A DNA stretch of 64,000 nucleotides from an uncultured Actinomycetes bacterium (GCA_963725665.1 CAVRZA010000006.1:1-64000); one strand, 5' to 3'. Numbered from the stretch's first letter, positions 1,525-40,625 are shown. Notes: generated from the sequence alone by a model not told the origin. A program made the numbers and translations.

Positions 1525-2561
1525 ATGAAGCTACAGCAGTCAGCACGACCATCTGAGGCCATGGCTAGAAGAAAGCTCCTTTCGGCAATGACTTCCAACC
1601 TGAGCTGGTCAGAAGCAGCAAGGGCATTGCTGTGCATGTTGCCGATGCTCGTCGCCGTGGCCATCGGCCAGATGACCTACATCGTTGCCCTTGGACAGGG
1701 GGGCTTCTTCTTCAGCTCGCTGCTGCTGCCGGCCCGGATCAGCGGTCGGCTCGTCATGGGGTCGATCCTGATCGCGTTGGGTCTGGGTTTCTACTTGATG
1801 GGCGGCACGGTAGCGCCGATGCCTGTGGTCGCCGTGGTGTTCACGTTCTTTGCAGCGCTGAACCTGAGCTTCCTACCAGTTGGCGCATCGGCGGCCCCAT
1901 AGCGCTGTCGATCGTCATGATCTATACGGCGGGGCTCAACACCGGGAGCCCGGAGAAAGCTGCCGCGAACTTCCTGGCCTTCGCCCTGGTCATGGCCTGG
2001 GCGACCCTTGTCTCCATGCTCCCCATCTGGCAGCCGATGATGCCCCCGAAACCCAAGCATGAACCCACCGAACGCCGAGCTTGCCGAACAGGGATTCCGC
2101 ATGGGCATCGGGACGTCATTGGCTCTGGCGATATCGTTCATCTTCGAGTTCGCGAAGATAGGCTGGGCGGTGAGTGCCGTCGGGAGTGTGGTGCGGTTCG
2201 ATCAGGACATGTCCAAGAAGCGGGCCATGGCCAGGCTGGTCGGCACGCTCGGCGGGGCGCTCACAGCTGGCTTTCTTCTCGTCAGGCTGAATTCGGTCAC
2301 TACACTCGTGTCATCGGAGCGCTGTTCGCGCTGCTCAACGGGCTGTACAAGAAGGCGAAGGTCGGACAGATGCCATTGTTCTATACGGCGACCATTCTGA
2401 TCCTGTACAGCCTCAACGACATTGAGAGTGGCAAGGACCTGGCTTACATGCGCCTCGCATACAACATCGTCGGCGTCGTCGTCGCCGTGTTCGTGGTCTT
2501 GTATCCCTTCCCACTTCTGACGAAGCGGCTGAGGAAGAGAGAAGAGACTCCTCAAGAGTAG
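1525..2561 (+). CDS. FUSC-like multi-pass membrane protein (frameshifted)
   Basis: Hydrophobic ORF pieces 1525.., 1632.. and 2059.. with FUSC-like RLVGTLGGA and RLAYNIVGV segments. Confidence 0.6.
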
Positions 2562-2748
2562 GCCGATGGCCGGTGATCGGCGTGCATCGCGCAGCACCGT
2601 AGAGCGACACTGCCTGCAGGTGGGGGAATAATGACGCGCACAGAAGCGAGACCGCGGCGGCCGTCTGAGCACGTCGTCCCCGTGACCGCGACTGGCGATC
2701 GAACGCCCGGGGCAATAAGGAAGCTCCACGAGCGGAAGGAGTCACGAC

Positions 2749-3818
2749 ATGGCCGACGAGAGAGCGAAGCGCATCGCGGAGTTCATCGAGCCGCTGCGCG
2801 TCGCACCCGGCTCCAAGGTGACGCTGGCAAAGGACTTCGATCCCGCCTACAAGGCGGAGTTCTTCAAGAAGAGGGACGGGGCCGAGCTCCTGCGAGCGGG
2901 CGTCGAGCTTCTGGCGAGTACCAGGCTCGCCTCGCGGCCCAGGACACCCACGGCGTCCTCGTCGTGCTCCAGGCGCTGGATGCCGCCGGCAAGGACGGCA
3001 CCATCCGCCACGTCATGAGCGGCGTGAACCCCCAGGGCGTCTCAGTGCACTCGTTCAAGGTGCCCTCCTCCGAGGAGCTCGACCACGACTACCTGTGGCG
3101 CTACGCCAAGAACCTGCCCGGCCGCGGCGAGATCGGCATCTTCAACCGCTCCCACTACGAGGAGGTCCTCGTCGTGCGCGTGCACCCCGAGATCCTCGAG
3201 CGCCAGAGGCTGCCCAAGCAGGCGCGCGGAAAGGACGTGTGGACGCGGCGCTACCGCGACATCAACGACTGGGAGCGGTACCTCGTCGACAACGGCTTCA
3301 AGGTCGTCAAGCTGTTCCTGAACCTCTCGCAGGAAGAGCAGCGCATCCGCTTCCTGAGGCGCATCGACCTGCCCGACCACAACTGGAAGTTCTCGGCCGC
3401 CGACGTCCACGAGCGCAGCTTCTGGGACGACTACCAGAAGGCGTTCTCCGAGATGCTCTCGGCCACGAGCACCGACTGGGCGCCCTGGTACGTGATCCCC
3501 GCCGACCACAAGTGGTTCGCGCGCATCTGCGCCTCGGCCATCATCGCGAACGCGCTGATCGAGATCGACCCGCGCTACCCGAAGGTGACCTCCGAGGCAC
3601 GCGCGGCACTGCAGCAGACCAAGGTGGAGCTGGAGGGTGAGGCGCCCAAGGGCGCCGCCCCCGACCCGTTCGAGGCGGAAGCCGGCACCGATGCCGAGAA
3701 GGCTGGGAAGAACGCCAAAGGCAAGGCTAAGAAGACGGCCAAGCACAAGTCGGGCAAGAAGGCCGGGAAGAAGGGCGACAAGGCGGCGGAGAACACCGCC
3801 GAAGCGTCGACCACCTGA
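2749..3818 (+). CDS. ppk2: Polyphosphate kinase 2 family protein with Lys-rich C-terminal tail (frameshift ~2910)
   Basis: QALDAAGKDGTIRHV (Walker A), FNRSHYEEVLVVRVHP, NWKFSAAD, APWYVIPADHKWF; AAGGAG RBS before ATG 2749. Confidence 0.93.
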
Positions 3819-3873
3819 GAGATCCAGAGCGACTCGCCGCCCCCAGAGGCGGCGACTCCGAGGGGAGAACGAG

Positions 3874-6629
3874 ATGGCAAAGACTGCCCGGATCACGGCA
3901 AGCGGTGCGGCGTCGGCCGCGCGCTGGTATTCACTCTCGCCCGAGGAGACCGCCAAGGGTCTTGGCGTAGATCCGGCCTCCGGCCTGTCGGCGGCGAAGG
4001 CAGCCGAGCTGCTGCGAAAGCACGGGCCCAACGCTCTTCCCGCCGAGCAGACCGTTCCGGAATGGCGGCGCTTCCTCGACCAGTACCGCGCCTACATGCA
4101 GATCATCCTGCTCATCGCCGCCGTGGTGTCGCTCGCCATCGGCCAGTGGAGCACCGGCGCTGTGCTGATCTTGCTGACCGTGTTCAACGCCGTCGTCGGC
4201 CTCCGTCAGGAGGGCAAGGCCGAGAGCGCGATGAACGCCTTGAAATCGCTGATGAAGCAGACCGCCCGGGTGCGCCGCGACGGGGCCGAGGCGGAGATCC
4301 CGGCCGAGGAGGTCGTCGTCGGCGACGTCGTGCTGATCAGCGCCGGCGACGACGTGCCCGCCGACGGCAGGATCATCCAGGCGAGCTCGCTCGACATCGA
4401 TGAGTCCGCGCTCACGGGCGAGAGCGTGCCGGCGTCCAAGGAGACGGACGCGCTGGCCGACGCGGAGCTGGGTCCTGGCGACCGAACGAACATGGCGTTC
4501 ATGAACACGCCGGTCACGCACGGCAGCGGCACGATGCTGGTGACGGCGACGGGCGCCGACGCCGAGGTCGGCAAGATCGCCGGCATGCTGGCGACGACCG
4601 CCAAGGAACAGACCCCGCTCGCGAAGCAGCTGAACACGATGACCCTGTGGATCGGCGCGGCCGCGCTGGGGACGATGATCGTCATGTTCGCGCTGGGCCT
4701 CTCGCGTGGCCAGTCGGCCGACAGCCTGTTCATCACTGCGGTCGCCCTGGCCATCGCGGCCATCCCGACGGCGCTGCCGACGGTCCTCCAGGTGATCCTC
4801 TCCGCCGGCGCCAAGGAGCTAGCCGGCGCAGAAGGCCATCGTCAAGGACCTCGTGTCGGTGGAGACGCTCGGCTCCACGTCGGCCATCAACTCCGACAAG
4901 ACCGGCACGCTGACGATGAACCAGATGACGGCCGTCGAGGTGCTGGACCCCGTCGACCGCTACACGATCTCCGGGATCGGCTACGGGCTCGAGGGTAAGG
5001 TGCACCACGCGGCCGGGACCTCCGCCTCCATCGACGACGCCGTCCTCCCTTACGTCATCGCGAGTGACGCCAAGCTCGAAGACGGCAAGGTCGTCGGCGA
5101 CCCCACCGAGGGCGCCCTGCTCGTCCTCGGCCACAAGGCGGGGCTCGACATCGACGCGAGCCGGGAGAGCCTCCCGCGGCTGGCCACGCTGCCGTTCGAT
5201 CCCACCTACAAGCTGATGGCGACCTTCAACTCCGCCACCGACGCGTCCGGCAAGAGCGTGGTGCGCTGCTTCGTGAAGGGGGCGGCGCCCGCCGTGATGG
5301 ACCACACGGCGAGCGCCCTCGCCGCCGGCGCCAGCGTGCCGTGGGACGACGCTCTGAAGAAGAGGGCGGAGGACGCCGTCACCCGCATGGAGGGCGAGGG
5401 ACATCGCGTGATGGCGGCGGCGGTCCGCGATCTCGACCCCGCCGCCTTCAATGCGGAAGGCGATCTGCTGAGCTACGTCACCGATCTCCAGATGACGTCC
5501 CTCGTCGCCATGGTCGATCCTCCCCGCGACGAGTCCAAAGCAGCCGTCCGCGATGCCCAGCGGGCCCACATCAGGGTGCGCATGGTCACCGGCGACGACG
5601 TGACCACGGGGGCGGCCATCGCCAAGCAGCTCGGCATCCCCGGTTCCGCGATGCTCGGCGCGGAGTTCGCCGCGCTCAGTGAAGAGGAGAGGCTGGCGCG
5701 CATCGACGACATCGGCGTGGTCGGTCGCGTGGCGCCCGAGCACAAGGTGCTCCTGGTCGAGACGCTCAGGAAGCAGGGCCATGTCGTCGCCATGACGGGC
5801 GACGGCGTGAACGACGCTCCGGCGATCAAGGCGGCCGACATCGGCATCGCCATGGGCACCGGCACCGAGGTGGCCAAGAACGCCGGCCGCATGATCCTCT
5901 CGGACGACAACTTCGCGACCATCGTGCGCGCGGTCGAGAAGGGCCGCGACGGTGTACGACAACCTCAACAAGTTCATCCGCTTCGTGATGCTCGAGCTCG
6001 CGGCGTACATCATCACGTTTCTCGGGGCCAGCATCCTCAACATCGCCGCCGGGCAGCCGTTCTCGCCCTCCCAGATCCTCTACATCAACTTCCTGGTCAA
6101 CGCGCCGCTCGGCGTCGCGCTGGGCATGGACAAGGAGGCGCCGGGCCTCATGGAGCTCGCGCCGCGGTCTCGCGACGCGTCGATCATGACGAGGGGCCTC
6201 CTGACCACCGCCGGTCTCGTCGGCCTGTTCATGGCCGTGTGCACGCTCGCGCTGATCAGCTACGGCACGTCCCACTACGGCAGCGTCGCCGTCGGCTCCT
6301 CGATGGGACTGACGGCGTTCTCGCTGCTCATCGTCGCGTCCGCCTTCCAGGCCCGCAGCGTGACTGCTACGGCGCTCACCACCGAGACGTTCGACAACCG
6401 GGGCCTGAACTGGACAGCCCTCGTGGAGCTCGTGCTCGCCGTGCTCATCACCCAGATGGACGTCCTGCGCCGCCTGTTCGGGACCGAGCAACTGTCGCTC
6501 GGCCAGTGGGCGCTGGCGGCGGTGCCCGCGGTGGCGCTCTTCTTCCTCTGGGAGCTCGGGAAGCTGATAGCGCGTCGCGGAGTGGAGCGGTCGCAGGTGG
6601 CGATGCCCGCCGAGGAGGCCGCTGCGTGA
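3874..6629 (+). CDS. Cation-transporting P-type ATPase (P2A/Ca2+-like; frameshifts ~4830 and ~5950)
   Basis: DESALTGES, SDKTGTLT phosphorylation site, DPPR, MVTGD, MTGDGVNDAPA. Confidence 0.93.
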
Positions 6630-6664: not shown

Positions 6665-8159
6665 ATGGTCAAGGACATCGCTTCGCGGAAAGTGGAGTCC
6701 CGCATGACGACCGGTGACCATGAGGCCCCATCGCTGGGCCGTCGAGCGCTCGCCGTTCTCTCGCTGCTGTTGACGGCCGTCCTCGTCGTCGCGGTGATCG
6801 TCTTTCTCGCGCACAACCTCCTCTGGCTCGTCGTGGCCCTCATCGGCCTGGCGGTCGCGGTGGCAGGCGTCTGGTGGGTGCTCACGGAGCGCATGCCGCG
6901 TCGCGCGGTCGGGATCGCGGGCCTTGTCGTCGGCGCCGTCGTCATCGTGGTGGCCCTGGTCAGGCGATCGAGGGCACACAGGATCCGCTGCTGCGCGTCG
7001 CAGTCGTCGCTGCCGCGCTGGCGGTCGCGGCCGTGGCGGCGCGGGCGGCGCTGGCGCCCGACCTGAGCGAGCTCGACCGCCTGCGCGCGTCAAGCACGTG
7101 CACCCGCGCAAGCCGGTGCTGCTGTGCAATCCCTGGTCGGGCGGCGGCAAGGTGGCGAAGTTCGGCCTCGCCGAGATCGCCGCCGAGATGGGCGTCGAGG
7201 TGGTCTTCCTCGACAAGGGGCTCGACCTCGCCGAGCTGGCCCGCGACGCCATCGCCCGCGGCGCCGACTGCCTGGGTATGGCCGGCGGCGACGGGTCGCA
7301 GGCCCTCGTCGCCTCGATCGCCCACGAGCACGACATCCCCTTCGTCTGCATCTCGGCGGGCACGCGCAACCACTTCGCCCAGGATCTGGGCTTCGACAAG
7401 GAGGACCCGCGCAAGGGCATGGTCGCCTTCCGCGACGGCGTCGAGCGCCTCATCGACTACGGCACCGTGGGCGGCCGCCTGTTCGTGAACAACGTGTCGA
7501 TGGGCATCTACGCGACGATCGTGCAGCAGGACAGCTACCGCGGCGCCAAGATCAAGACGACGAGGGAGATGCTCCCCGAGATGCTGAGCCACCAGGCCGA
7601 ACCGTTCGACCTGCAGTTCACGACGCCCGACGGAGTCGAGATCGACGACGCCTTCGTCGTCCAGGTCTCGAACAACCCCTACGTGTGGGGAGCCTCGGCC
7701 GACTTCGCGCAGCGGCGCACGATGGACTCGGGCAAGCTCGGCGTCTTCGCGGTCAACGCCAGGAGTGGGCGCGAGGCCGCCGAGATCGTCACGCGCGCCA
7801 TGACGGGCCTCGCCAAGCACGACCGCTACTTCCACGAGTTCACCACCGAGACCTTCGAGGTGCGCTCGCGCAGCGGCAAGGCCTTCGCCGGCATCGACGG
7901 CGAGGCCCTCGAGCTCGACACGCCGCTCGAGTTCCGCATCCACCCCCGCGCCCTGCGCATGCTCGTTCCCGAGGACGTCATGGTGACATCGGCGCGACGA
8001 CGCGCCCGGGGCTACAGCCCCAGAGGTCTCGTTCGCGGTGGCCCTGGGTCGGCGGCCCGGCGGCGCGTGGGCGGCGGCGGCGCGCGGCGGCCGGCAGGCG
8101 ACGGCGGCCCGCGCGCCGATGAGCGCCGGCGCGGAGTCAGCGCCGTGACGCGCCGATAG
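6665..8159 (+). CDS. Diacylglycerol kinase-family protein with N-terminal TM segments (frameshifted; end uncertain)
   Basis: CNPWSGGGK, GMAGGDGSQ, SAGTRNHFA, FVNNVSMG, GIDGEA. Confidence 0.85.
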
Positions 8160-8834
8160 CCGTCGCCGCCGTCGGTTTCGACCTCGGTGAGACGCTCTAT
8201 CACTACCGCGGCGCGCCGATGCGCTGGCTCGAGCAGGGACGCCCCACCCTCGAAAGGGTCTGTGACGCCTGCGGCATCGACCGCTCCAAGGCCCACCTCG
8301 CAGCCTCCGCCCGACAGATCGGCGAGCTACAGGGCGCACCTTCGTGAGCGGATCGGCAAGGCGGCGGCTTCTGACGTCATGACCAACGTGTTCGGCGCCT
8401 TCTTCGAGGTCTTCCGCAGGAGCCTCGAGGCGTACCCGGACGCGGTCGAGACGCTCGCCGCCCTCAAGCGGTCGGGCTTCGCGATCGGCGCGCTGACCAA
8501 CGTGCCCTTGGGCATGCCGCGGCGCACCATCCAGAACGACCTCGAGCGTCTGGGGCTGGCGCCGTACATCGACGGCTTCCTGACTTCGGTCGAGGTGGGA
8601 TCGCGCAAACCGCACCGTGCACCCTTCGAGAGGCTCGCGGCGACGCTCGCTGTCGACCCGCAGGAGATCGTCTATGTCGGCAACCTGCCCACCGATGTGA
8701 CGGGGGCGCTGGCAGTCGGCTGCGTGCCCATCTTCCTCGACCGCACGGGGAGCGGGATCGACTACGGTCAGGCGGCGACCGTGCACCACCTGGATGAGAT
8801 CCCGCCGCTGCTCACCCGCACTCCGGGACGCTGA
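8119..8834 (+). CDS. HAD-superfamily hydrolase (frameshifted; start uncertain)
   Basis: GFDLGETL (motif I variant), ALTN, GSRKPH, YVGNLPTDVTGA. Confidence 0.75.
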
Positions 8835-8924: not shown

Positions 8925-9593
8925 TCAGCCGCCGCCGCGCCGGAGCCATCTGCGGACCGTGCGCACCGGGAGGAGCAGGTAGACACCGATGAGCACGTAC
9001 AGGACCAGCCCCACGTAGGGCTGGATGAGGCCGAGCACCGTGGCCACGGCGTAGAAGACGAGGCTCGGCGCGAGCTGGTACGTCACCCGGCGCTCCTCCT
9101 GGCGCTCCTCGGCGGCGTCGCCGCCGAACAGACCCTCACGCTCAGCGTAGCGCCCCAGCACGATCAGCATCAGGCTCATCAGGAACAGCACGATGCCGAA
9201 GAACGCGACCGCCGTGCGCTCACCGCCGTGCTCCGTGTCCGTCAGCCTCAGATACTCCTGCATCACCCGGGCCGGGTACGGCAGGAAGGCGACGAGCAGC
9301 AGGAGCAACAGGTTCAGTCGCAGGAAGCCGGCGTTGACGCGCTCGAGGGCCTCGGTCAACGCGTTGTGCTCGATCCACACGACGCCGATGCTCATGAACG
9401 CGATGAAGTAGGCCAGGTATATCGGCCGTTCATGGAAGAGCGCCGACAGCAGGTGGCTGCCGGCGTGCGCCGGCACCGCGATCTCGATGACCAGCAGCGT
9501 GATGGCGATGGCGAAGACGCCGTCGCTGAACGCCTCCAGGCGGCCCTTATTCTTGTAGTCCCTCAATGAGGGCGAACTACTCACGCCGGTCAC
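8925..9593 (-). CDS. TMEM175-family K+ channel (DUF1211)
   Basis: RLEAFSDGVFAIAITLLV signature, WxxH, several predicted TM helices. Confidence 0.9.
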   Translation of the reverse strand: MTGVSSSPSLRDYKNKGRLEAFSDGVFAIAITLLVIEIAVPAHAGSHLLSALFHERPIYLAYFIAFMSIGVVWIEHNALTEALERVNAGFLRLNLLLLLLVAFLPYPARVMQEYLRLTDTEHGGERTAVAFFGIVLFLMSLMLIVLGRYAEREGLFGGDAAEERQEERRVTYQLAPSLVFYAVATVLGLIQPYVGLVLYVLIGVYLLLPVRTVRRWLRRGGG

Positions 9594-10215: not shown

Positions 10216-10794
10216 CTACGGCTTGCGCATTCCGTCCCAGAGGAGCGAATCGACCTCCAGCACCGCTTGTTCGTGGGTGAGCCCGCTGGCGCTCAGGACT
10301 CGCCCGTTGCGCGTCACCACTGAGATCTGGCTGAGCAGCTCGGCGAGGAAGCGGATGTTCACGGGCCGGATCTCACCGGCGTCCTCCGCACACTGGACCA
10401 GTTCGACGAACCGGTCGAGGTAGGGTTCTACAACACCGGTCCACCACGCTAGCCGCGTCGACTCGAAGCGATTGACATCAGCGTAAAACGCCAGGGACAG
10501 GGGGCGGGTGCTCTCTGCTCCGGCGCGGAAGTAGGCGCGTGCCCGGTCCGAGGCGGTCGTGCCCTGCTGGGCACGAACCTCGAGAGCCTCGAGGGTGAGT
10601 TGGCCCCAGCGGCCGATTGCGAGCACGACGAGGCTGTCCTTGCTCGGCGCGATCTTGTAGAGCGACGACTCGGAGCAGTGCAGCTCGCGCGCCATCTCGG
10701 CGGTGCGGACCTCGGAGAACCCGCGCGCCGCGATGATGTCCATGACGCCGTCCAGCAGCTCCTCACGCCGTCCGTTGTCGAGTCGTTTTCGCAC
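10216..10794 (-). CDS. TetR/AcrR family transcriptional regulator
   Basis: RREELLDGVMDIIAARGFSEVRTAEMARELHCSESSLYK HTH; GTG start with GGAGG. Confidence 0.88.
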   Translation of the reverse strand: MRKRLDNGRREELLDGVMDIIAARGFSEVRTAEMARELHCSESSLYKIAPSKDSLVVLAIGRWGQLTLEALEVRAQQGTTASDRARAYFRAGAESTRPLSLAFYADVNRFESTRLAWWTGVVEPYLDRFVELVQCAEDAGEIRPVNIRFLAELLSQISVVTRNGRVLSASGLTHEQAVLEVDSLLWDGMRKP

Positions 10795-10893
10795 GTTCTG
10801 GCCTCCCCGGCTCCATCTCGGCCGGAAACCCGTCAGCGCAGGTTCCGGGACTTGCAGCAAGAACGGTTGCGCTTCCTTATAGGTAGTGTTAAA

Positions 10894-10920
10894 AGTAGCA
10901 GCCTACTGTAGTGTACTACT
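10894..10920. promoter_or_regulatory. Imperfect palindrome, candidate TetR operator
   Basis: AGTAGCA-GC-CTACTGTAG-TG-TACTACT in the AT-rich divergent region, directly before TATGAT (10922-10927). Confidence 0.55.
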
Positions 10921-10963
10921 CTATGATGCCTCTTCAAGTTTGGGTCAGCACAAGGAGGAAGCC

Positions 10964-16901: not shown

Positions 16902-16908
16902 CCGACCC

Positions 16909-26331: not shown

Positions 26332-26399
26332 CGCTGCTCCCTCGGGTCGCTCACCGCGCCCGCCTGAGCACCTTGCGGCGAGATCGCCTGCACCCCTCT

Positions 26400-27500: not shown

Positions 27501-27593
27501 GCGGCGTCGCGGCCCGAAGGGTCCCTCGATCTTGTCGGGCGGCGCCCAATCGGCGCCGAGGCGAACTGCTCGTCGCTCATGCTCGCTGCCGAC

Positions 27594-30952: not shown

Positions 30953-31137
30953 CGCGCTCGCGCCGCCTGACCGGAAGACTTGTACCGCCGTCGACCGCCT
31001 GACCAAACGGCGATCACGGCGGGTGAACGTCCGGGGGACTCCGCGACGCCAAGGGTAGGCAGTCAACAGTGTGGCGGAGCGGCGCTCCGCCTCGCGGTTC
31101 TGATCAAGGCACCAGGATCAACGAAAAGGAGTGGCAA

Positions 31138-31650
31138 ATGGCGGACAAACCAGTCTTCCTCTTCATCGGCGTGTACGACAACCCCGTGCTCGCCAGAGGC
31201 GACCTCGACATCGTCTACGACCTGCACGCCGCGGGAGTCATCGGCACCTATGACGCCGCCGTCGCGGTCAAGGAGCTCGACGGTTCGGTCAGGATCGAGA
31301 AGCACGAGAAGCCAACGCAGCACGGCGCCTGGACGGGGATCGCCGCAGGCGCCGTGGTCGGCATCATCTTCCCACCCTCGATCATTGGCATGGCCGCCGT
31401 GGGCGGCGTCGCCGGCGGCCTCATCGGCCACTTCTGGCGCGGCATGTCGCGCAAGGACGTACACGAGCTCGGTGAGATGCTCGACGCGGGCCAGGCGCTG
31501 CTCATCGTCCTCGGCCAGGACAAGCTGTACGCGGAGTTGCAGAAGGCCAACCTGAAGGCCGAGAAGCAGATTGAGAAAGAGCTCGACATGGAGGGCAAGG
31601 AGCTCGACAAGCAGCTCGCCGACGCGGAGAAGGAGCTGGCCAAAGGCTGA
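31138..31650 (+). CDS. DUF1269-family protein
   Basis: Closely similar to 22263..22769 (PVFLF.GVY, EKPTQHGAW, GMSRKDVHELGEMLD). Confidence 0.82.
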   Translation: MADKPVFLFIGVYDNPVLARGDLDIVYDLHAAGVIGTYDAAVAVKELDGSVRIEKHEKPTQHGAWTGIAAGAVVGIIFPPSIIGMAAVGGVAGGLIGHFWRGMSRKDVHELGEMLDAGQALLIVLGQDKLYAELQKANLKAEKQIEKELDMEGKELDKQLADAEKELAKG

Positions 31651-31686: not shown

Positions 31687-32982
31687 CTACCAGTAGCGCT
31701 TTCGCTCGATCAGCGATTCGAGGTAGTGCGACTTCATCTGCTCGCTGGCCATCACCTGCTTCACCGGCGGTAGCCTGAGAACCACGCCGAGGATAGCCGC
31801 CAGGGCACGGTGCCCGGCCCGCGCGTGCTCGGCGAAGACGAGGTTCTGCAGCTTGCCGCGCTCGATGGCCATCAGCACAGTGCGGTGGGCCGAGTCGAGG
31901 GGTGTGATCACGCGCTCTTCGCGCAGCGTCAACGAGAGGGCCCCGCGCCCACAGGCGCGGGTGCAGACGGCGCAGCCAAGACAGCGTTCCTCATCGACGG
32001 CGGCGCTCATGCGGCGTGCCCGCAAGCCGTTGCCGTTGCCCGGCGAGGCGCTCAACAAGAGCATCGCATCCACGGGACAGACGGCAGTGCAGGCCCCGCA
32101 ACCGTTGCAGCGCTGCTCGTCGACGACCGGCAGGAAGCGGGTCGTGTGCACCGGCCGCAGGATGGCGAAGCGCCGCGCCGCGGTCAAGGTATCGCAGCAG
32201 CAGCCGCAGCAGTTGCAGATGAAGTTGGGCCGCACACGCACGTTCTCGGCGTACTGCACGAGATTGTGCTCGTAGGCGTCTTGGAGCAGCTCGATGCCCT
32301 CGCGCGCGTCGAGGGGGCGCGCCAGGTCGTTGCGCAATAAGTAGTCTGCCGCCGTGTCGAAGGCCATGCAGAGCTCGAGCGGCGCGTCGCAGGCCTTCCC
32401 GAGGTGGTGCATCTTGTGCCGGCAGAAGCAGACGCCGACCGCGCGGTGGTCGGCTTCCTCGATGATCGCCGAAGCGAGCTCGTAGTCGAGCACGTGGAGG
32501 GCGTTGTCGCCAGCGAGCGCGGGCTCGTGGACGAGAGTGCGACCGAGCTGCGTCCCGCCGGGCTCGTAGAGCTGACGCATGAAATCGCCTTCGACGTTCA
32601 CATAGCGGTAGAAGAGCTCAGCCAGGGCCTTCTGGCCGCCGTCGGGCGGGACACGCATGAGCGTGAGCTCGAAGAAGCCGGCCATGGGCGGCGGCATGAA
32701 GTACACCCGTTGGCCGTTGAGGCCGGTGTCGACGACAAGGCCCTTGGCCGCGAGGCGGTCGAGAGTGCGCTCGGCCTCGGCAGGGCCCACCTTCCAGGCG
32801 CGCGCGGCGGCGGCGACCTTGAAGGGCGCCAGGGGAAGCTGGGCGACCAGGCGCGCCTCCTCCTCGGTGAAGATGCGCGCCAGGATCTCGTAGAGCAGCT
32901 CCGACGGCGGCGCCCCCGTGGGAAACCGATTCATCCGCCGGGTGAGCTCTTCGTAAACAGGCTTTGCGCTGTGATGGGCCAT
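31687..32982 (-). CDS. 4Fe-4S ferredoxin-domain protein
   Basis: CFCRH, CNCCGCCC, CNGCGACTAVCP, CLGCAVCTRAC. Confidence 0.85.
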   Translation of the reverse strand: MAHHSAKPVYEELTRRMNRFPTGAPPSELLYEILARIFTEEEARLVAQLPLAPFKVAAAARAWKVGPAEAERTLDRLAAKGLVVDTGLNGQRVYFMPPPMAGFFELTLMRVPPDGGQKALAELFYRYVNVEGDFMRQLYEPGGTQLGRTLVHEPALAGDNALHVLDYELASAIIEEADHRAVGVCFCRHKMHHLGKACDAPLELCMAFDTAADYLLRNDLARPLDAREGIELLQDAYEHNLVQYAENVRVRPNFICNCCGCCCDTLTAARRFAILRPVHTTRFLPVVDEQRCNGCGACTAVCPVDAMLLLSASPGNGNGLRARRMSAAVDEERCLGCAVCTRACGRGALSLTLREERVITPLDSAHRTVLMAIERGKLQNLVFAEHARAGHRALAAILGVVLRLPPVKQVMASEQMKSHYLESLIERKRYW

Positions 32983-33129
32983 GGCTAGGGCGCGACGCGT
33001 CGCCGAACAGGATAGCAGACACGCGCGGCGACAAGACGTTGCCGTTTGGTGCAAGCAGTAGCAGGTTCATAACGGAGGGCAAAGTCGGCGCGCGGGCACC
33101 AGGCGCATATCCGCGCGCGAGGGGGTGAG

Positions 33130-34416
33130 ATGAAGAAGATCATCGTGCTGGGCGGCGGCTTCGCCGGCGTCTCCGCCGCCCAGCGCCTCGCCAAGGACAA
33201 GAGCGCCGAGGTCCTGCTGATCAGCAGGACCAACTTCCTGACGTACACGCCTTTTCTGGCCGACGTAGCCGGCGGGACGCTGGCTGTCGTTCACGCCGTT
33301 CCCCCCATACGGATGATGGCCCCGCGCGCACGCGTCGAGGTGGCCGAGGTCGAGACGATCGACGTGGGCGGCCAGTCGGTGGGCGTCAGACTGCCCGACG
33401 GTACGAACCGCGGGCGGTCGTTCGACTACCTGATCGTCGCGCTGGGCGCGCATACGGACTTCCGGCACGGCGCGGGCTCAGAGCGTTTCGGGTTCCCGCT
33501 CTACACCATGGGCGACGCCTTCCTGCTCCGCAACCACGTGCTGGAGATGCTGGAGCTGGCCGAAGCCTCCCACAACGCCGACAAGCGCCGTGAGCTTCTG
33601 ACCTTCGTCTTCTGCGGCGGCGGCTTCTCGGGCGTCGAAGGCGCCGCCGCCATCGAGGACCTCGTCCACGGGGCGATCCCATACTTCAAGACCATCCGGC
33701 CGGAGGAGACGACGTTCATCCTGGCGCCTCACGGAGACCGCCTCCTCGCTCAGATCGATGAGAAGCTCGGGCAATACGTCGTCAAGCGGCTGGCCAAACG
33801 CACCGTCGACGTGCGACTGGGAGTAGGGGTGACGGAGGTGACCGAGAGGAGCGCGACGTTGAGCACCGGCGAAGTGGTGCCGACGCGCACCGTCTTGTGG
33901 GCCGCGGGCATCGAGGTGAGCCCACTGCTCCACAGCGTCGACCTGCCCAAGGACGAGCACGGCGCCGTCCGGGTGGGCGGCAACTTGCAGGTGACCGGTC
34001 ACGAGAACGTCTTCGCCCTCGGCGACTGCGCGGCCGTCCCCACGCCCGACGGCAAGGGCTTCTACGCGCCGACCGCCCAGAACGCCATCCGCCAGGGCAA
34101 GGTCGCAGGGGAGAACCTGCTGGCGCTGCTCCGCGGCGACCAGCCCGACCGCGTCTTCGACTACAGGCCGATCGGCAGCCTCGCCAGTCTCGGGCGCCGC
34201 CAAGCGGTGGCGCAGATCAAAGGCCTGAGGCTCTCGGGCTTCCTGGCGTGGCTGCTCTGGCGGGGGATCTACCTGGGTAAGCTGCCGCGCTTCTCGCGCA
34301 AGTTCCAGGTGGCCGTCGACTGGATTGGCGACCTTTTCAGCCCTGTGGAGACCACCTACTTCCCGCTGGGGCCGCGTGAGACTCCGGCCGGCGAGATGAG
34401 CCCACCGAGACGCTAA
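33130..34416 (+). CDS. ndh: Type II NADH dehydrogenase family FAD oxidoreductase
   Basis: GGGFAG, GGGFSGVE, FALGDCA, APTAQNAIRQG, GFLAWLLW. Confidence 0.85.
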   Translation: MKKIIVLGGGFAGVSAAQRLAKDKSAEVLLISRTNFLTYTPFLADVAGGTLAVVHAVPPIRMMAPRARVEVAEVETIDVGGQSVGVRLPDGTNRGRSFDYLIVALGAHTDFRHGAGSERFGFPLYTMGDAFLLRNHVLEMLELAEASHNADKRRELLTFVFCGGGFSGVEGAAAIEDLVHGAIPYFKTIRPEETTFILAPHGDRLLAQIDEKLGQYVVKRLAKRTVDVRLGVGVTEVTERSATLSTGEVVPTRTVLWAAGIEVSPLLHSVDLPKDEHGAVRVGGNLQVTGHENVFALGDCAAVPTPDGKGFYAPTAQNAIRQGKVAGENLLALLRGDQPDRVFDYRPIGSLASLGRRQAVAQIKGLRLSGFLAWLLWRGIYLGKLPRFSRKFQVAVDWIGDLFSPVETTYFPLGPRETPAGEMSPPRR

Positions 34417-34492: not shown

Positions 34493-35755
34493 ATGGAAGA
34501 AGAGCAGCGCCCGCCGGTTTCGACCCCGCCGCCGGATCCCCGGCCGGACGTCCCGCCCGCGTTCCACCTGCTGGCCAAGCCCACCGGCTCGGTGTGCAAC
34601 CTCGACTGCGCCTACTGCTTCTTCCTCGAGAAGGAGAAGCTCTACCCGGAAAGCCGCTTCCGCATGAGCGATGAGCTGCTCGAGCGCTACATCCGGCAGC
34701 TCATCGCGGCGCATCGCACGCCCGAGGTGACCATCGCCTGGCAGGGCGGCGAGCCCACGCTCATGGGCTTGGAGTTCTTCCGCCGCTCGGTCGAGCTGGC
34801 CAAGAAGTACGCCAGGCCGGGCATGGCCGTGAGCCACACGATCCAGACCAACGGCACGCGCCTCAACGGCGACTGGGCGCGCTTCTTCAAGGAGAACGGC
34901 TACCTCGTGGGCCTGAGCATCGACGGGCCGCGCGAGCTGCACGACGCCTACCGCCGCGACAAGGGCGGCCGGCCGACCTTCGACCGCGTCATGCGCGGCC
35001 TCGGGCATCTGCGCGAGCGCGGCGTGGACTGGAACGCGTTGACCACGGTCCACGCCGCCAACGCCGAGCACCCCGTCGAGGTCTACCGCTTCCTGCGCGA
35101 CGAGTGCGGGGCGCAGTTCATCCAGTTCATCCCCATCGTCGAGCGACCGACCGAGGACGGCGTGCCCTACGGCGACGCCGTCACCGAGCGCTCCGTTACT
35201 GCCAATCAGTGGGGCACCTTCCTCATCGGGGTCTTCGAGGAGTGGGTGCGACGCGACGTGGGCGAGGTCTACGTGCAGATGTTCGACGTGGCGCTGGCGA
35301 ACTGGTACGGCGAGCCGGCAGGACTCTGCGTGCACTCGCCGACCTGCGGCACCGCCCTCGCCATGGAGCACAACGGCGACGTGTACGCCTGCGACCACTT
35401 CGTGGAGCCCGGCTACCTGCTGGGGAACATGGGCGAGCGGGAGCTGGGCGAGCTTGTCGCGTCGCCGCAGCAGCGCTGCTTCGGCCTCGACAAGCTCGCC
35501 CAGCTCCCCCAGTTCTGCCTCGACTGCGACGTGCGCTTCGCCTGTCACGGCGGCTGTCCGAAGGACCGCTTCATCTCGACGCCCGACGGCGACCCTCGGC
35601 TGAACTACCTCTGCGCCGGCTTCAAGGCCTTCTTCCATCACGTCGACCCCGCGATGCGGCGCATGTGCGAGCTTCTTCGGGCCGACCGGGCGCCGTCGGA
35701 CATCATGGCGCAGTATGTCGGCGCGGACGGCGACGACCAGGGGACGACCTCATGA
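34493..35755 (+). CDS. Anaerobic sulfatase-maturating enzyme (radical SAM/SPASM)
   Basis: AKPTGSVCNLDCAYC, WQGGEPTL, GDVYACDH, CLDC...CHGGCPKDR. Confidence 0.93.
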   Translation: MEEEQRPPVSTPPPDPRPDVPPAFHLLAKPTGSVCNLDCAYCFFLEKEKLYPESRFRMSDELLERYIRQLIAAHRTPEVTIAWQGGEPTLMGLEFFRRSVELAKKYARPGMAVSHTIQTNGTRLNGDWARFFKENGYLVGLSIDGPRELHDAYRRDKGGRPTFDRVMRGLGHLRERGVDWNALTTVHAANAEHPVEVYRFLRDECGAQFIQFIPIVERPTEDGVPYGDAVTERSVTANQWGTFLIGVFEEWVRRDVGEVYVQMFDVALANWYGEPAGLCVHSPTCGTALAMEHNGDVYACDHFVEPGYLLGNMGERELGELVASPQQRCFGLDKLAQLPQFCLDCDVRFACHGGCPKDRFISTPDGDPRLNYLCAGFKAFFHHVDPAMRRMCELLRADRAPSDIMAQYVGADGDDQGTTS

Positions 35756-36213
35756 CGAGCGAGGACAGGCCCGCGGCACCGGACGCGCCGAGCGAACCGG
35801 CGCGCGAGAGTCGACAAGACGCGCACGTGGACGTGTCGGGCGCGGATCCACGCCGCGATGAGGCGGAACTCCGCCGCGACAGCGCGCCGCGCCGCACTCT
35901 CCTGGCCGCGGAACGGACCTACCTTGCCTGGCTCAGGACAGGGCTGGGAGCGATCGCCGTCTCAGTCGCGGTCGGCCGCGTCGCCCCCGCGCTGCTCGGC
36001 GGCCCGCATCTTGCCTACGCTCTGCTCGGCTCCGGCTACGGCGTGCTGGGCATCTTCTTCATCGTCTACGCGCTCGTCCGGGCGAGGCGACTCGACGCCG
36101 CCCTGGCCGCCGACACCTCGGTGACCCTGGACTGGTGGGCCCTCGTGATCACCACGGTCATCGGTCTCACCTTGGCCGTAGCCACGATCGTGATGGTCCT
36201 CGCCGAAGTCTGA
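35752..36213 (+). CDS. DUF202/YidH-family membrane protein
   Basis: LLAAERTYLAWLRTGL; start overlaps the maturase stop (ATGA). Confidence 0.88.
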   Translation: MTSEDRPAAPDAPSEPARESRQDAHVDVSGADPRRDEAELRRDSAPRRTLLAAERTYLAWLRTGLGAIAVSVAVGRVAPALLGGPHLAYALLGSGYGVLGIFFIVYALVRARRLDAALAADTSVTLDWWALVITTVIGLTLAVATIVMVLAEV

Positions 36214-36220: not shown

Positions 36221-36682
36221 CTAGGAGCGCTTGTTCAGCGCGGCCTCGATCCGTTCGAGGCGTTCTTCGATCTTCAGCAGCTGCTCCGCGGGCGAGGCGT
36301 CGCTTCCGTTCGGCGGCTGTTCTCGGCTTGACCGCGCCACGAACGAGCTGGTGATCGACGCGGTGATCACCGTGACGAACCCGATCCCGAGCAGCATCAC
36401 GAGAGCTGCCACGATCTGGCCCGCGGCGGTCGTCGGGACGTGATCGCCGTAGCCGACTGTCGTGATTGTCTGGACGGCCCACCAGAGCCCAGTGCCGAGC
36501 GACGGAAAGCCTTTTCGGTCGAGGATCGTCATCGCCAGGCCGGCGACAATGGTTATCGAGGTCGTGATACTGGCGATGACGATCGCGGCCCCTCGAGGCG
36601 TCGCGGCGCGGACGATCCATCGGTCGAGCAGACGCTCGCTCCTAGTCTCGACTTCCATGACAGTAGAATTCGCTATAGCCAC
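36221..36682 (-). CDS. KcsA-like 2-TM potassium channel
   Basis: LWWAVQTITTVGYGDHVP. Confidence 0.9.
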   Translation of the reverse strand: MAIANSTVMEVETRSERLLDRWIVRAATPRGAAIVIASITTSITIVAGLAMTILDRKGFPSLGTGLWWAVQTITTVGYGDHVPTTAAGQIVAALVMLLGIGFVTVITASITSSFVARSSREQPPNGSDASPAEQLLKIEERLERIEAALNKRS

Positions 36683-36850: not shown

Positions 36851-39209
36851 ATGCGTGAACCGTTCAAGGGTGTCATCAACGTCGACATCCGCGACTCGAA
36901 ACCGGACTGGGCGCCGTTCGAGCCGCCGAAGGCGCCCGACGGCGCCCCCAACGTCGTCTACATCGTGCTCGACGACGTCGGCTTCTCGGCGATGTCCTGC
37001 TACGGCGGCCCGATCCCGACGCCCAACATCGACAAGATCGCGGCCGACGGCGTGCGCTACACGCAGTGGCACACCACGGCACTCTGCTCGCCGACTCGCT
37101 CGTGTCTGCTCACTGGTCGCAACCACACGCGCAACTCGATGGCCTGCATCACCGAGGCGGCGATCGGCTTCCCGAACGCCAGCGGGACCATCCCTCCCGA
37201 GAACGGCATGCTCTCCGAGATCCTCGGTGAGCTGGGCTGGAACACCTACATGGTCGGCAAGTGGCACCTCTGCCCGACCGACGAGATGAACCTGGCCGCG
37301 CCGCGCCGCAACTGGCCGTCCGGGCGCGGCTTTGAGCGCTGGTACGGTTTCCTCGGCGCCGAGACCAACCAGTGGTATCCCGAGCTCGTGTACGACAACC
37401 ACCCGGTGGACCCGCCCAAGACGCCGGAAGAGGGCTACCACCTCACCGACGACATCACCGACAAGGCGCTCGAGTTCATCAAGGACGCCAAGGCGATCGC
37501 GCCGGACAAGCCGTTCTTCCTCTACTACGCTCCCGGCGCCTGCCACGCGCCGCACCACGCGCCCAAGGAGTGGATCGACAAGTTCAAGGGCCAGTTCGAC
37601 ATGGGCTACGAGGCGATGCGCGAGCAGACGCTTGGCACGCCAGAAGAAGATGGGCCTCGTCCCGCCCGACACGGAACTGCCGCCGATCAACCCCATCGGC
37701 ACGCCCGAGACCCGCACCGGCCCCGACGGCAAGCCGTTCCCGGTGATGGACGTGACCAAGCCGTGGGACTCGCTCTCCGACGGCGAGAAGGAGCTCTTCT
37801 CCCGTATGGCTGAGGTCTACGCGGGCTTCCTCGCCCACGCCGACTACCACATCGGCCGGCTGCTCGACTACCTCGAGTTCGCCGGCCAGCGCGAGAACAC
37901 TCTGGTCATGCTCGTGTCGGACAACGGCGCCAGCGGCGAGGGCGGCCCCAACGGGTCGGTCAACGAGAGCCGGCTCTTCAACGGCATGCCCGACGACCTC
38001 GACTCAGCCCTCGCCATGCTCGACGAGCTCGGCGGTCCCAAGACCTACAACCACTACGCGAACGGCTGGGCGATGGCCTTCAACACGCCGTTCAAGATGT
38101 GGAAGCGCTACGAGTTCAACGGCGGCACCGCCGACCCGTGCATCGTCTCGTGGCCGGCCGGCATGAAGGCGAAGGGCGAGATCAGAGAGCAGTATCACCA
38201 CGCGATCGACCTCGTCCCGACGGTCCTCGACTGCCTCGGCGTCGAAGCCCCCAAGACCATCAAGGGCCACGTGCAGAGCGACTTCGACGGTGTGAGCATG
38301 CGCTACAGCCTCGACGACGCCAAGGCCGACGGGGCGCGCAAGACCCAGTTCTACTCGATGCTCGGTTCGAGGGGCATCTGGCACGAGGGCTGGAAGGCCG
38401 TCACGACCCACCCCACGGTCGCCGGGTGGAGCGATTTCAACGACGACACCTGGGAGCTCTATCACACCGAGGTCGACCGCTCAGAGCTCCACGATCTGTC
38501 CAAGGAGGACTGGGGCAAGCTCAGGGAGCTCCAGAGCCTGTGGTTCGCGGAGGCCGGCAGGAACGGCGCCTTCCCCCTCGATGACCGCTCTCCGCTCGAG
38601 ATCATCCTGACGCCGCGGCCTCTGCTCGCGCCGCCGCGCGACCGCTACGTGTACTTCCCCGACACCGCCGACGTCCCGGAGCAACAGGCCGTCAACGTCC
38701 GCAACCGCTCGTACTCGATCGGAGCACTGGTCGACATTCCCGCCCCCGGCGCCGAAGGGGTCCTCTTCGCCCACGGGGCACGCTTCGGCGGCCATGCCCT
38801 CTACGTCAAGGACAACCGCCTGCACTACGTGAACAGCTTCGTCGGCATCGTCGAGCAGAAGATCGACGCGACCGAGGACCTGCCGACCGGTGAAGACCTG
38901 ATCCTCTCGGCCTCCTTCGAGAAGGACGGCGAGGACCCGCCCGGGGTGGCCACCGGTATCCTGTCCCTCTATCACGGCGACAAGCAAGTCGGCGAGGGCC
39001 GGATCAAGACCCAGCCAGGCTTCTTCTCGCTTGCCGGCGAGGGTCTGTGCGTCGGACGCGACAGCGGCGAGGCCGTCACCGACGACTATCCGGGCGAGTC
39101 GCCGCACCGCTTCACGGGTGGCACGATCAAGCGTGTCGCCGTGGACGTCAGTGGCGAGCCCTACCTCGACCTGGAGCGCCACGCCCAGGCGATGCTGGCG
39201 CGGGAGTGA
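36851..39209 (+). CDS. Arylsulfatase (frameshift ~37630)
   Basis: PNVVYIVLDDVGF, CSPTRSCLLTGR, GKWH, SDNG; no signal peptide. Confidence 0.92.
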
Positions 39210-39255
39210 TCCACCGACGTCAGGCTGACGACACTACCTTGACGCATTGAGAACC

Positions 39256-39289
39256 GGGGCGGGGGCCGGCATTCGCCGGCCCCCGCCCC
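39256..39289. terminator. Hairpin between convergent genes
   Basis: GGGGCGGGGGCCGGC-ATTC-GCCGGCCCCCGCCCC followed by CTTT. Confidence 0.7.
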
Positions 39290-39341
39290 CTTTGCATACA
39301 CACCACACGATGCGCGGTCCAGCGGGCACAGCCGGCCGCGA

Positions 39342-40625
39342 TCAGGCCAGGTGGGGATCGTCCGCTGCCGGCTGCCGGCGGAAGCGCGGCGCGACCGTAG
39401 GCACGGCCTCCTCGGCCTCCGGGCGCACCGCCGTGTGGGCCTCGTACCAGCGGCGGTAGGAGGCGATGAGCGGGACCGACGAGAGGCCGTGCGCAAGCAC
39501 GCTGAGCGCCACCGTGCACGCGACGACCCGCGCGAGCAGTTGCGCGTGGGGCACGTCTGCCTCCAGAGCCAGTAGGCCGAAGACGATCGAGGCCAGCCCG
39601 CGCGGTCCGAACCAGCCCATGAACCAGACGGTCGGCCCGCGCGCCCCGCTCCTCAGCATGGCGAGAGCGACCGGGCCGATGCGCACGACGGTCAGGCTGA
39701 GCACGGCGTAGAGTACGATCTGCCAGGTGAGGTGCGGGATGGCCCTCTCCAGGGCGAGCGCGCCGAAGCCTATCCACACGACCGCCGTGAGCAGTCCGCC
39801 GGTCTCCTCCGTGAAGAGGGTGAAGCGCAGACCACGCGCCCCTGCGGCGCGGCCGAAGGTCATACCGCCGACGAAGGCGCCGATGAAGCCGCTGCCGCCG
39901 AGCCACACGGCCAGGGAGTAGGCGAGGGCCGCCGTGGCCAGGGTCATGATCTGACGCCAATGCGCCTCGATCCAGCCGTGCCGGTCGGCCCAACGCACCA
40001 GCAGCGCCCCGAGCAGCGCCGCACCGACCCCTGCGAAAATGCCGTATCCGATCTGCTGCGCGGCGTTCCTGACCACCGCGGACACCGCGTTGGTCTTCGC
40101 TTCGGCCAATGTGATATCGACGGCCACGAGGAAGAAGGGCACCGCCAGGCCGTCGTTGAGCCCGCTCTCGACGTTCAGCGCCTGGCGCACGCGCGAGGCC
40201 ACGGCCGGGTCGGTCACGACGCGCTGACCGAGCGCGGCATCGGTCGAGGCGAGCATGATCGAGAGCAAAGCCGCCGTCGCCAGACCGATGCCGGGAAACA
40301 CCAGCAGCGCCGCACCGGCTCCGACCAGCATGGTGAGAGGCAGCCCGGCGAGGAGCAAACGCTCGGGCCACGCCAGCTGGGCGCGCAGCGAGCGCAGGTC
40401 GATGCGCGCGGCGTCGCTGAAGAGCAGGAGGGCCAGGGCGATCTCGGTCAGATGCTCCGCTGTCGCGCCCTCCACGGGCAGGTTCACCAGATCGAGGACC
40501 GAGGGACCCACGAGCAGCCCCGCCAGCATGAAGACCATCGCCGATGTGACGCCGCGCCCATCGAGCGGCTTGGAGACCGCACCGTAGGCGATGAGAATCG
40601 CGGCGATGGTCAGCAGGGCGATCAT
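39342..40625 (-). CDS. Cation:proton antiporter (CPA1/NhaP-like)
   Basis: STDAALG, NVESGLNDGLA, GWFGPRGLAS. Confidence 0.9.
   Translation of the reverse strand: MIALLTIAAILIAYGAVSKPLDGRGVTSAMVFMLAGLLVGPSVLDLVNLPVEGATAEHLTEIALALLLFSDAARIDLRSLRAQLAWPERLLLAGLPLTMLVGAGAALLVFPGIGLATAALLSIMLASTDAALGQRVVTDPAVASRVRQALNVESGLNDGLAVPFFLVAVDITLAEAKTNAVSAVVRNAAQQIGYGIFAGVGAALLGALLVRWADRHGWIEAHWRQIMTLATAALAYSLAVWLGGSGFIGAFVGGMTFGRAAGARGLRFTLFTEETGGLLTAVVWIGFGALALERAIPHLTWQIVLYAVLSLTVVRIGPVALAMLRSGARGPTVWFMGWFGPRGLASIVFGLLALEADVPHAQLLARVVACTVALSVLAHGLSSVPLIASYRRWYEAHTAVRPEAEEAVPTVAPRFRRQPAADDPHLA

Follow-up and report, generated by a model that had tools for sequence, protein, structure and literature searches.

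The stretch of DNA analysed here, referred to below as the window, covers 64 kb from the start of contig C6 in the genome of an uncultured Actinomycetes bacterium (G000; 3.73 Mb in 12 contigs, with 97.5% completeness and 5.0% contamination), and its positions 1525 to 40625 hold an island of about 39 genes in which proteins of polyphosphate metabolism, ion and pH homeostasis, sulfatases and small membrane proteins lie together. Our conclusion, to which we give a probability of roughly 0.58, is that the island is one family's version of a reshuffled neighbourhood centred on the DUF1269 domain and composed of separate ion/pH, phosphate, sulfatase and membrane-stress modules, which are probably co-regulated. 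The GC content is 63% to 72% across the whole window with no step at the island borders, and raw lists of open reading frames (ORFs; 388 of at least 60 amino acids (aa) in the window) were useless at such GC content. The ORFs were thus ranked by third-position GC, of which 142 (62 + 44 + 36) were scanned against Pfam and 31 against NCBIfam, and the gene models were finally based on tblastn with the intact genes of relatives and on a frame-change detector. The genomes used for comparison carry G-labels; G003 represents another genus, and G140, G146 and G040 a third genus, of the same family as G000.

The results showed that the island is divided into a dozen or more small transcription units with both strands used, and that most of the families named in a preliminary description of this DNA are present, with no housekeeping gene interrupting them, as was stated there. 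Based on knowledge of the families, on which all the roles suggested below rest, the genes may be assigned to four modules. The first, which would act on protons and charge, comprises a glutamate decarboxylase (GAD; 17654-19045, + strand; 666.5 bits to the TIGR01788 equivalog, cut-off 380.4), a CLC chloride channel/antiporter (23366-24763, +; Voltage_CLC, E 1.3e-21), three K+ channels, a CPA1/NhaP-type cation/proton antiporter (39345-40625, -; Na_H_Exchanger, E 1.3e-40), a type-II (Ca2+/cation) P-type ATPase (3898-6581, +; Pfam domains spread over three ORFs), and a MIP aquaporin/glycerol facilitator (29233-29953, +). Of the K+ channels, one is of the TMEM175 type (8928-9593, -; Pfam TMEM175, E 8e-26; 82% identity to the G003 orthologue) and two are two-transmembrane channels of the Ion_trans_2 family (26842-27549, -, E 7e-13; 36224-36682, -, E 7e-15). 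All of these had been named before and were confirmed by Pfam and NCBIfam, as were the PPK2, DUF202 and SHOCT proteins and one FUSC_2 protein described below. Just outside the island, the stretch 1149-1322 (+) resembles the C-terminal tail of the G003 and G012 TMEM175 proteins (56% to 57% identity), is not preceded by a TMEM175 domain, and may be a gene remnant.

The second module would concern phosphate, energy and lipids and includes a PPK2-family polyphosphate kinase (2749-3815, +; Pfam PPK2, E 1e-62; TIGR03709, 344 bits, cut-off 247), a YegS/DAGK-type lipid kinase (6734-8156, +; DAGK_cat, E 3e-15, with the NCBIfam lipid kinase models under their cut-off), a HAD hydrolase (8150-8831, +; Pfam Hydrolase and HAD_2), and a YfcE-type metallophosphoesterase, a probable phosphodiesterase (30263-30949, +; Metallophos_2, E 1.8e-30; TIGR00040, 77 bits, above cut-off).

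The third module would act on sulfate esters through two putatively cytoplasmic sulfatases of the Cys type, activated by an oxygen-independent maturase. Sulfatase 1 (19121-22030, +) and sulfatase 2 (36851-39206, +; about 785 aa) both carry the motif CSPTR, which is also found in both G003 orthologues, and the anaerobic sulfatase-maturing radical SAM enzyme (34493-35752, +) scored 480.9 bits to TIGR03942 with a cut-off of 349.45, so that the earlier identification of two sulfatases with a maturase holds. Together with GAD and PPK2, this enzyme gave the strongest family assignments of the analysis. The N-termini of both sulfatase orthologues, read by eye only, show no hydrophobic or twin-arginine export signal, which fits a cytoplasmic location. 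Sulfatase 1 is spread over three frames in the window, while its orthologues in G003, G015, G012 and G021 are single ORFs of 968 to 976 aa, and what had looked like a DUF1269 gene followed by a sulfatase gene is therefore one fused gene, an arylsulfatase architecture in which a DUF1269 domain forms the N-terminus of a protein of about 970 aa. We take the 970-aa AtsB (Rv3299c) of M. tuberculosis to be an example of this architecture. According to one report, no substrate was known for any of the nine M. tuberculosis sulfatases (PMC3675115), and in another DUF1269 is portrayed as a ferredoxin-like domain into which a glycine-zipper hairpin is inserted (10.1101/2024.07.07.602159). By way of such a hairpin domain, sulfatase 1 would be tied to the membrane.

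The fourth module would consist of small membrane and stress proteins, namely DUF1269 proteins, a DUF6325-like protein, a SHOCT protein, a DUF7144 protein and three proteins of no known family. Two DUF1269 proteins stand alone (22263-22766, +, Pfam DUF1269, E 7e-9, with 87% to 88% identical copies in G140 and G146; 31069-31647, +, E 2.7e-8). With the N-terminus of sulfatase 1 (19121), three DUF1269 domains were counted, where the preliminary description had reported four DUF1269-like proteins. The SHOCT-domain protein (15914-16180, +) matched Pfam SHOCT with E 1.3e-9, the DUF7144 small membrane protein (13638-14018, +) matched its family with E 2e-25, and the DUF6325-like protein (16218-16710, +) was named from its G003 orthologue, which matches DUF6325 under cut-off (E 1.7e-4). 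A conserved 129-aa protein (11412-11798, +) matched no Pfam or NCBIfam family and has 72% to 85% identical copies in G140 and G040, a 96-aa protein (14281-14568, +) had no Pfam match and has 74% to 83% identical copies in G140, G146 and G040, and a gene of about 280 aa without known family (12737-13577, +) has adjoining 82% to 84% matches in G146. A 151-aa protein of no Pfam family (22827-23279, +) has an intact paralogue on G000 contig C4, and for its 152-aa relative the Protein Atlas gave only hypothetical-protein or unnamed clusters; among the tiny membrane ORFs reported earlier, 22916-23095 and 23106-23279 proved to be the two halves of this single gene. DUF1269 was mentioned in the literature searched, in which no mention of DUF7144, DUF6325 or their accessions was found.

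The remaining genes include several which had been overlooked: a TetR-family regulator (10219-10860, -; TetR_N, E 2.9e-5; 65% identity to the G003 orthologue), a rhodanese (10886-11350, +; Pfam Rhodanese, E 3e-22), an SsuA-like binding-protein fragment (11855-12716, +; TIGR01728, E 7e-12, far under cut-off; 90% identical copy in G140), an S-adenosylmethionine methyltransferase (14870-15692, -; Methyltransf_25, E 8e-16), an XRE-type helix-turn-helix regulator (17130-17495, +; HTH_3, E 2.4e-9), a 455-aa protein with a 2x[4Fe-4S] domain (31690-33054, -; Fer4 families; G003 homologue on another contig), and an NDH-2-like flavoprotein (33130-34413, +; Pyr_redox_2, E 1e-37, and NDH2_C), in addition to the lipid kinase, HAD, YfcE and DUF7144 genes above. 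A DUF202 (YidH-like) membrane protein (35752-36213, +; E 1.2e-12) follows directly after the maturase, in G003 too. The claimed DUF1345 protein (24887-25561, +; 83% identity to the G003 orthologue) does match that profile, but with 21.2 bits, under the Pfam cut-off of 31.8. Two FUSC proteins had been proposed, of which the FUSC_2/ArAE-type exporter at 27597-28622 (-; E 2.4e-14) stands and the 309-aa ORF at 1632-2558 (+) has only a weak FUSC_2-like C-terminus (E 3.2e-4; 21.3 bits vs a cut-off of 25.6) with no NCBIfam match. The proposed CYTH protein was not found, as there was no match at E up to 0.01 among the 142 ORFs with Pfam nor at E up to 0.001 among the 31 with NCBIfam. A 208-aa membrane protein (25661-26247, -) gave as a lead only a DUF4386 label on 10% of one Protein Atlas cluster, and the approximately 550 bases between its gene and the K+ channel gene (26290-26840) hold no convincing ORF, Rfam match or G003 DNA match. 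The island is bordered on the right by a PASTA Ser/Thr kinase (40736-42260, -; Pkinase and three PASTA domains). In general, the preliminary description was largely right in what it observed, but it overlooked the frame changes, to which we return below.

Beyond the kinase, positions 43824-52828 (-) hold a tidy cluster without frame changes, which encodes a Liv-type ABC importer, a BKACE beta-keto acid cleavage enzyme, a cupin, a cyclase, a 3-hydroxyacyl-CoA dehydrogenase and an SDR; these genes are also grouped in G140 (C3), G146 (C6) and G015 (C55) and were not found in G003 or G040. Within the island, ten genes at 15914-25561 (+) are co-directional with short gaps, including SHOCT, DUF6325-like, XRE, GAD, fused sulfatase, DUF1269, 151-aa, CLC and DUF1345 genes, and G003 has a comparable run of SHOCT, DUF6325-like, GAD, LapA, CLC, YfcE, HAD and DUF1345 genes without the sulfatase block.

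The set is kept together in related genera, which bears out the earlier claim of co-inheritance. In G003, homologues (at least 45% identity) of 22 of the approximately 39 island genes were found within 58 kb of one contig in a different order. The G003 cluster holds PPK2-ATPase, TMEM175, TetR-rhodanese, SHOCT-DUF6325-GAD, the fused sulfatase, maturase-DUF202, sulfatase 2, MIP, NhaP, DUF1345, the 152-aa and 208-aa genes, and YfcE. It also has additional genes for DUF1269, DUF7144 (five copies in all), CLC, K+ channel and HAD proteins, and likewise ends at PASTA kinase genes, which are only 50% to 54% identical to that of the window. The number of matching places was 28, 26 and 18 for G140, G146 and G040, respectively, within 45 to 90 kb; many of these were 75% to 92% identical at the amino acid level, and the order was again reshuffled. 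As a control, 17 non-island proteins of the window were compared with the same regions of these three genomes, and only ABC-ATPase and SDR matches of 28% to 34% were obtained. In G015, pieces of the island lie on three contigs, each beside DUF1269 genes, and some island members are duplicated in related genera.

The degree of conservation was also high. Island proteins were 75% to 95% identical between genera (87% to 95% for sulfatase 2, 82% to 92% for the ATPase, 83% to 89% for PPK2, 87% to 88% for DUF1269, and 83% for GAD), in comparison to 85% to 89% for RpoB in the same five relatives. Of five ordinary proteins from the right half of the window, four were found at 51% to 82% identity in two to three of the five genomes and one in none. 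The island is thus as conserved as RpoB while its metabolic neighbours are patchy, and it belongs more to the core of the family than they do. The RpoB-like identities may reflect strong constraint or lateral exchange, either of which would explain them. The six DUF1269 domains of G000 are confined to two sites, the island and C4:10-33 kb. The second neighbourhood (C4:10001-40000) contains three DUF1269 genes, an 804-aa sulfatase, three SulP/STAS permeases and the 151-aa gene, together with DedA, YfcE, TetR, MFS, an LPG-synthase-type membrane protein and an AI-2E transporter.

To look at co-localisation beyond the family, 151 genomes of the class were searched and positions were tallied by hand. 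DUF1269 was present in 61 genomes, TMEM175 in 70, GAD in 60, and PPK2 of this type in 41. A DUF1269 gene lay within 10 kb of a TMEM175 gene in 14 of the 42 genomes having both (nine genera in four families), within 10 kb of GAD in 7 of 34 and within 30 kb in 10 of 34, and within 25 kb of PPK2 in 11 of 25, where random placement would give a few per cent, even though the genomes are related and the tallies thus overstate the number of independent events. In five genomes (G040, G140, G096, G064 and G146) the DUF1269 gene is directly upstream of the TMEM175 gene with gaps of 77 to 434 nt, and in three genomes of one genus the TMEM175-linked DUF1269 proteins form a subgroup of their own, 85% to 90% alike within it and 19% to 30% to the others. 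A complex prediction for the G040 pair, with alignments of 11 rows each, gave a score of 0.00 and a mark of 0.32 and weighs neither way on binding.

The fused sulfatase provided a second anchor. In the genome collection, 299 relatives of it were found, spread over Actinomycetota, Chloroflexota and a single cyanobacterial record, with 66% to 80% identity between Actinomycetota and Chloroflexota records. In the 79 loci kept (Actinomycetota and Chloroflexota, with G003's own left out), at least one other island family was found within 10 kb in 51 loci, at least two in 24 and at least three in 17, while 17 non-island proteins used as a control matched in 10 of 80 loci. The families counted were DUF6325-like (15), maturase (13), DUF7144 (7), K+ channel (7), GAD (5) and DUF1269 (5), and TMEM175, CLC and MIP with 3 each. 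Isolates in whose records GAD, DUF6325 and a K+ channel accompany the fused sulfatase include Nocardioides and Pedococcus. That the families are co-localised well beyond chance, as had been proposed, is thus borne out by the conservation across genomes.

The closest described thing to the island is the region named MRLGR in Actinoplanes sp. SE50/110, a set of 51 genes, of which 40 are activated by MalT via the box TCATCC-N5-GGATGA, as reported by Droste et al. 2020 (PMC7567727). As given there, it contains SHOCT, three DUF1269 proteins, a DAG kinase, a metallophosphoesterase, BrkB-type proteins, MFS and AI-2E transporters and glucosidases; ppk2 lies in the corresponding region of Actinoplanes relatives; and although its order is described as "highly diverse" from strain to strain, the set is not dispersed, and no function is known for it (PMC7567727). 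The earlier statement that no function had been described for such a gene set thus needs to be qualified in that a partly overlapping region, co-regulated by experiment, is already in print, and it stands in that no function is known for that region either. Compared by family name only, the window shares with MRLGR three DUF1269 domains, SHOCT, DAGK_cat, Metallophos_2 and PPK2, and the G003 cluster BrkB and MFS. Both are large regions of mostly unannotated membrane and transport genes, and in both the set is kept with its order shuffled between relatives (here G003, G140, G146 and G040). The differences are that the gene list of MRLGR includes no sulfatases, maturase, GAD, P-type ATPase, K+ channels, CLC, NhaP or MIP, while its arginine deiminase genes and peptidases are absent here.

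The island is a variant rather than a member of the MalT regulon because both the box and the regulator are absent. No LuxR/GerE or MalT family was found among the 142 window ORFs or 64 G003 ORFs, and the only TPR_MalT match in G000 (contig C2) scored 35 bits, with a cut-off of 45. The MalT box gave two matches with two mismatches in the window vs 2.04 expected, and none of the four one-mismatch matches in the whole genome lies in C6:1-41 kb or C4:10-40 kb. Other searches for a signal upstream of the island genes were made as well. The SigF-like pattern GTTT-N14-18-GGGTA gave no matches; k-mers of 6 to 10 bases, compared with the rest of the genome, gave nothing convincing in 66 regions or in 166 regions of five genomes, the best z of about 6.6 resting on 8 to 9 regions that include orthologous copies; gapped palindromes (arms of 5 to 6, spacers of 0 to 12) were only GC-rich terminator-like hairpins; and a scan for sigma-70 promoters and terminators over 13.5-31.7 kb was at or under the shuffle expectation.

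A likeness may also be drawn to the glutamate-dependent acid resistance of E. coli, in which the Gad system and the acid fitness island are aided by a ClC antiporter as an electrical shunt. GAD and CLC here lie in one co-directional run (17654-24763; GAD-LapA-CLC in G003). The differences are that the scans of the window found no GadC-type antiporter, GadE/X/W or HdeA/B, that the phylum is another one, and that the run contains many further genes. A role of ClC antiporters alongside amino-acid decarboxylase systems has been proposed (PMC6909576).

Several observations weigh against our conclusion, in addition to the relatedness of the genomes tallied. Membership is loose. In G140 and G146, 118 to 131 kb separate GAD from the cluster, and in G003 the lipid kinase-HAD pair and the genes for the 4Fe-4S protein and the NDH-2-like flavoprotein are placed elsewhere than in the cluster. 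For the methyltransferase and XRE genes, no match of at least 45% identity was obtained in G003, and none of the loci around the fused sulfatase, that of G003 included, gave a match to the FUSC query. Among those loci, 28 of 79 are without any other island family, and none of the 11 ATPase matches reaches 35% identity, so that these are probably from a different subfamily. The upstream searches described above turned up no k-mer or palindrome common to the island genes, nor a SigF-like promoter or MalT box, and common regulation, which would be the most likely reason for the clustering, is drawn purely by analogy with the MalT regulon of Actinoplanes. Finally, among the window ORFs scanned no amino-acid permease family was found that could supply a Glu/GABA antiporter (GadC), so that a reading of GAD as acid resistance is incomplete.

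Some of these observations would suit an accumulation hotspot, in which accessory membrane and stress genes have gathered in a region tolerant of recombination with no functional or regulatory link, their conservation being due to common descent. Gene order differs in every genome, no cis motif is shared, GAD, the lipid kinase, the 4Fe-4S protein and the NDH-2-like gene are found elsewhere in some relatives, and the modules have plausible stand-alone roles. We nevertheless consider a hotspot unlikely, in that the set has stayed together through extensive reshuffling in three genera, its proteins are conserved like RpoB in all five relatives checked with the adjacent metabolic cluster being patchy, DUF1269 has TMEM175, GAD and PPK2 as neighbours in further families of the class, the gene families of the island turn up again beside the fused sulfatase in a second phylum, and the overlapping Actinoplanes region is a proven regulon (PMC7567727).

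Horizontal exchange, by which the cluster or blocks of it would move between genera and phyla and hence be so similar, is rather more doubtful. It would agree with identities between genera at or above that of RpoB, with the 66% to 80% identity of the fused sulfatase between Actinomycetota and Chloroflexota, and with the transfer proposed by the authors of the Actinoplanes study for their region (PMC7567727), but strong purifying selection explains the identities equally well and the sequence around the genes carries no marks of movement. The Pfam scans of the window contained no integrase or transposase family, no flanking repeat was seen, the window has no tRNA gene and no Rfam match at gathering score, and GC is 0.63 to 0.71 in the island vs 0.65 to 0.72 in the flank. 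A mobile island was rejected as a candidate on account of the missing integrase, transposase and tRNA gene and the GC resembling that of the flanks.

The interrupted reading frames raised the question of whether the island is decaying. Comparison by tblastn of relatives' proteins with the window, together with the detector, indicated frame changes in at least 15 of the approximately 39 gene models. In the left part these are PPK2 (near 2898-2937; the G015 orthologue maps in frames 1 and 3), the ATPase twice (one-base insertions at 4827 and 5948 vs G003 and G015; a single ORF in relatives), the lipid kinase (between 6919 and 7092), HAD (near 8310-8334) and the methyltransferase (near 15270), each with the G015 orthologue in two frames, the SsuA-like gene (near 12007, by the detector), the 12737-13577 gene (split near 13105 into two overlapping high-scoring frames), and the DUF6325-like gene (near 16400; G003 orthologue in two frames). 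Further to the right they are sulfatase 1 (indels at 19404, 19482, 19527, 19565 and 20962), the 151-aa gene (insertions at 22891, 22911 and 23071 vs G003), the 208-aa gene split twice (indels at 25906 and 25950; G003 orthologue in three frames), the K+ channel at 26842-27549 (a probable change near 27100, with a second high-scoring frame at 27123-27500), FUSC (near 28463, by the detector), MIP (insertion at 29595, the profile extending over two frames), and sulfatase 2 (a one-base insertion at 37632, the Sulfatase profile again over two frames; a single ORF in relatives).

Indels were resolved in six genes aligned to G003, with the ATPase also aligned to G015. Single-base insertions accounted for 12 of the 15 frame-disrupting indels, none was in a homopolymer, and there were no large deletions. 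Identity to orthologues was equal before and after the breaks; the ATPase segments were 88% to 92% identical to orthologues with no internal stops (88%, 92% and 89% for the three segments vs G003), and those of sulfatase 2 were 87% to 95% identical to G003. No stop was present in 15 of 16 segments, and the sole stop, in the PASTA-kinase segment, we take to be presumably the gene's own terminal stop, although the range entered starts below the called gene end. The detector found 320 events across G000, or 0.086 per kb, in comparison to 2 events in loci of five isolate records totalling 102 kb; 12 of its events were in the window, 10 of them in the first 40 kb, and it missed others seen by alignment. 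Outside the island, frame changes were observed in an SGL lactonase (3-672), the PASTA kinase (40736-42260; near 42046, in two frames vs the G003 kinases), hisD (42356-43714) and a Mo-oxidoreductase (60957-63430), and their density peaks near both ends of contig C6. Split genes also occur in the relatives' assemblies, such as the rhodanese in G003 (L024:15335-17291) and a Liv binding protein in G146 (C6:681793-683218), so the problem is not peculiar to G000. Among the public sequencing runs compared, each of which holds at most 0.10 of the sampled words of the stretch, contigs of the independent runs X3 and X7 were without the inserted letter at 19528, 20962, 22893 and 22915, and those of X3 also at 19561.

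We therefore regard the frame changes as likely to be mainly errors of long-read assembly, and since they would mostly be such errors, the genes are probably intact in the organism. What tells against this is that the first 40 kb carries frame changes at roughly three times their mean density in the genome and that contigs of run X1 do not leave out the inserted letter at 19528, 20962 and 22893 (the contig at 22893 with a depth of 2.8); given the X1 contigs, some breaks may be real mutations. A decaying island, in which the breaks are real mutations and the organism is losing the whole gene set, could call on those two points, on the interruption of at least 15 genes and on the intact rpoB and rpoC of G000. 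We nevertheless find it improbable in view of the predominance of one-base insertions, the stop-free segments of even identity, the like events throughout the genome (including hisD, the PASTA kinase and the Mo-oxidoreductase) and in relatives' assemblies, and the X3 and X7 contigs without the inserted letters at five sites. It should be kept in mind that, in genomes assembled from long-read metagenomes, an apparent wealth of pseudogenes in an island can reflect consensus errors.

The preliminary description had gone further and proposed a single co-inherited system; its strong form, one integrated multi-protein system coupling polyphosphate, ion fluxes and sulfate-ester hydrolysis, is very improbable. 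Tight clustering and the fusion or adjacency of DUF1269 domains to several different partners do speak for it, but only co-inheritance stood, with order different in every genome and membership varying, no pathway logic joining sulfatases, GAD and PPK2, the genes divided among many short units on both strands, and each module occurring alone elsewhere.

In the neighbourhood of separate modules which we favour, the set would be kept together by common regulation under acid, osmotic or stationary-phase stress, through a regulator that differs from MalT. A more far-reaching and tentative possibility, which we would not put forward as likely, is that DUF1269 is the hub of an unrecognised stress regulon of soil bacteria that crosses phyla. 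It takes its cue from the partners of the domain, which is fused to a sulfatase, directly upstream of TMEM175, and next to GAD, NhaP and CLC. At the membrane, the domain would tether or regulate different partners, and all genes of the neighbourhood would be induced jointly to maintain pH, ion balance and membrane integrity in acid, anoxic or dormant phases, the MalT region of Actinoplanes being one regulatory variant.

A partly overlapping regulon was already in print. The present analysis shows the island, which includes PPK2-ATPase and GAD, to be kept across three genera of one family. In the genomes of soil bacteria, few components are as poorly understood as the large sets of small membrane proteins that lack annotation. 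A conserved, reshuffled set which overlaps a proven Actinoplanes regulon gives a handle on DUF1269, DUF6325, SHOCT and DUF7144 proteins and on the long sulfatases that are orphans with respect to substrate, and cultured carriers exist in which the function of the set may be tested.

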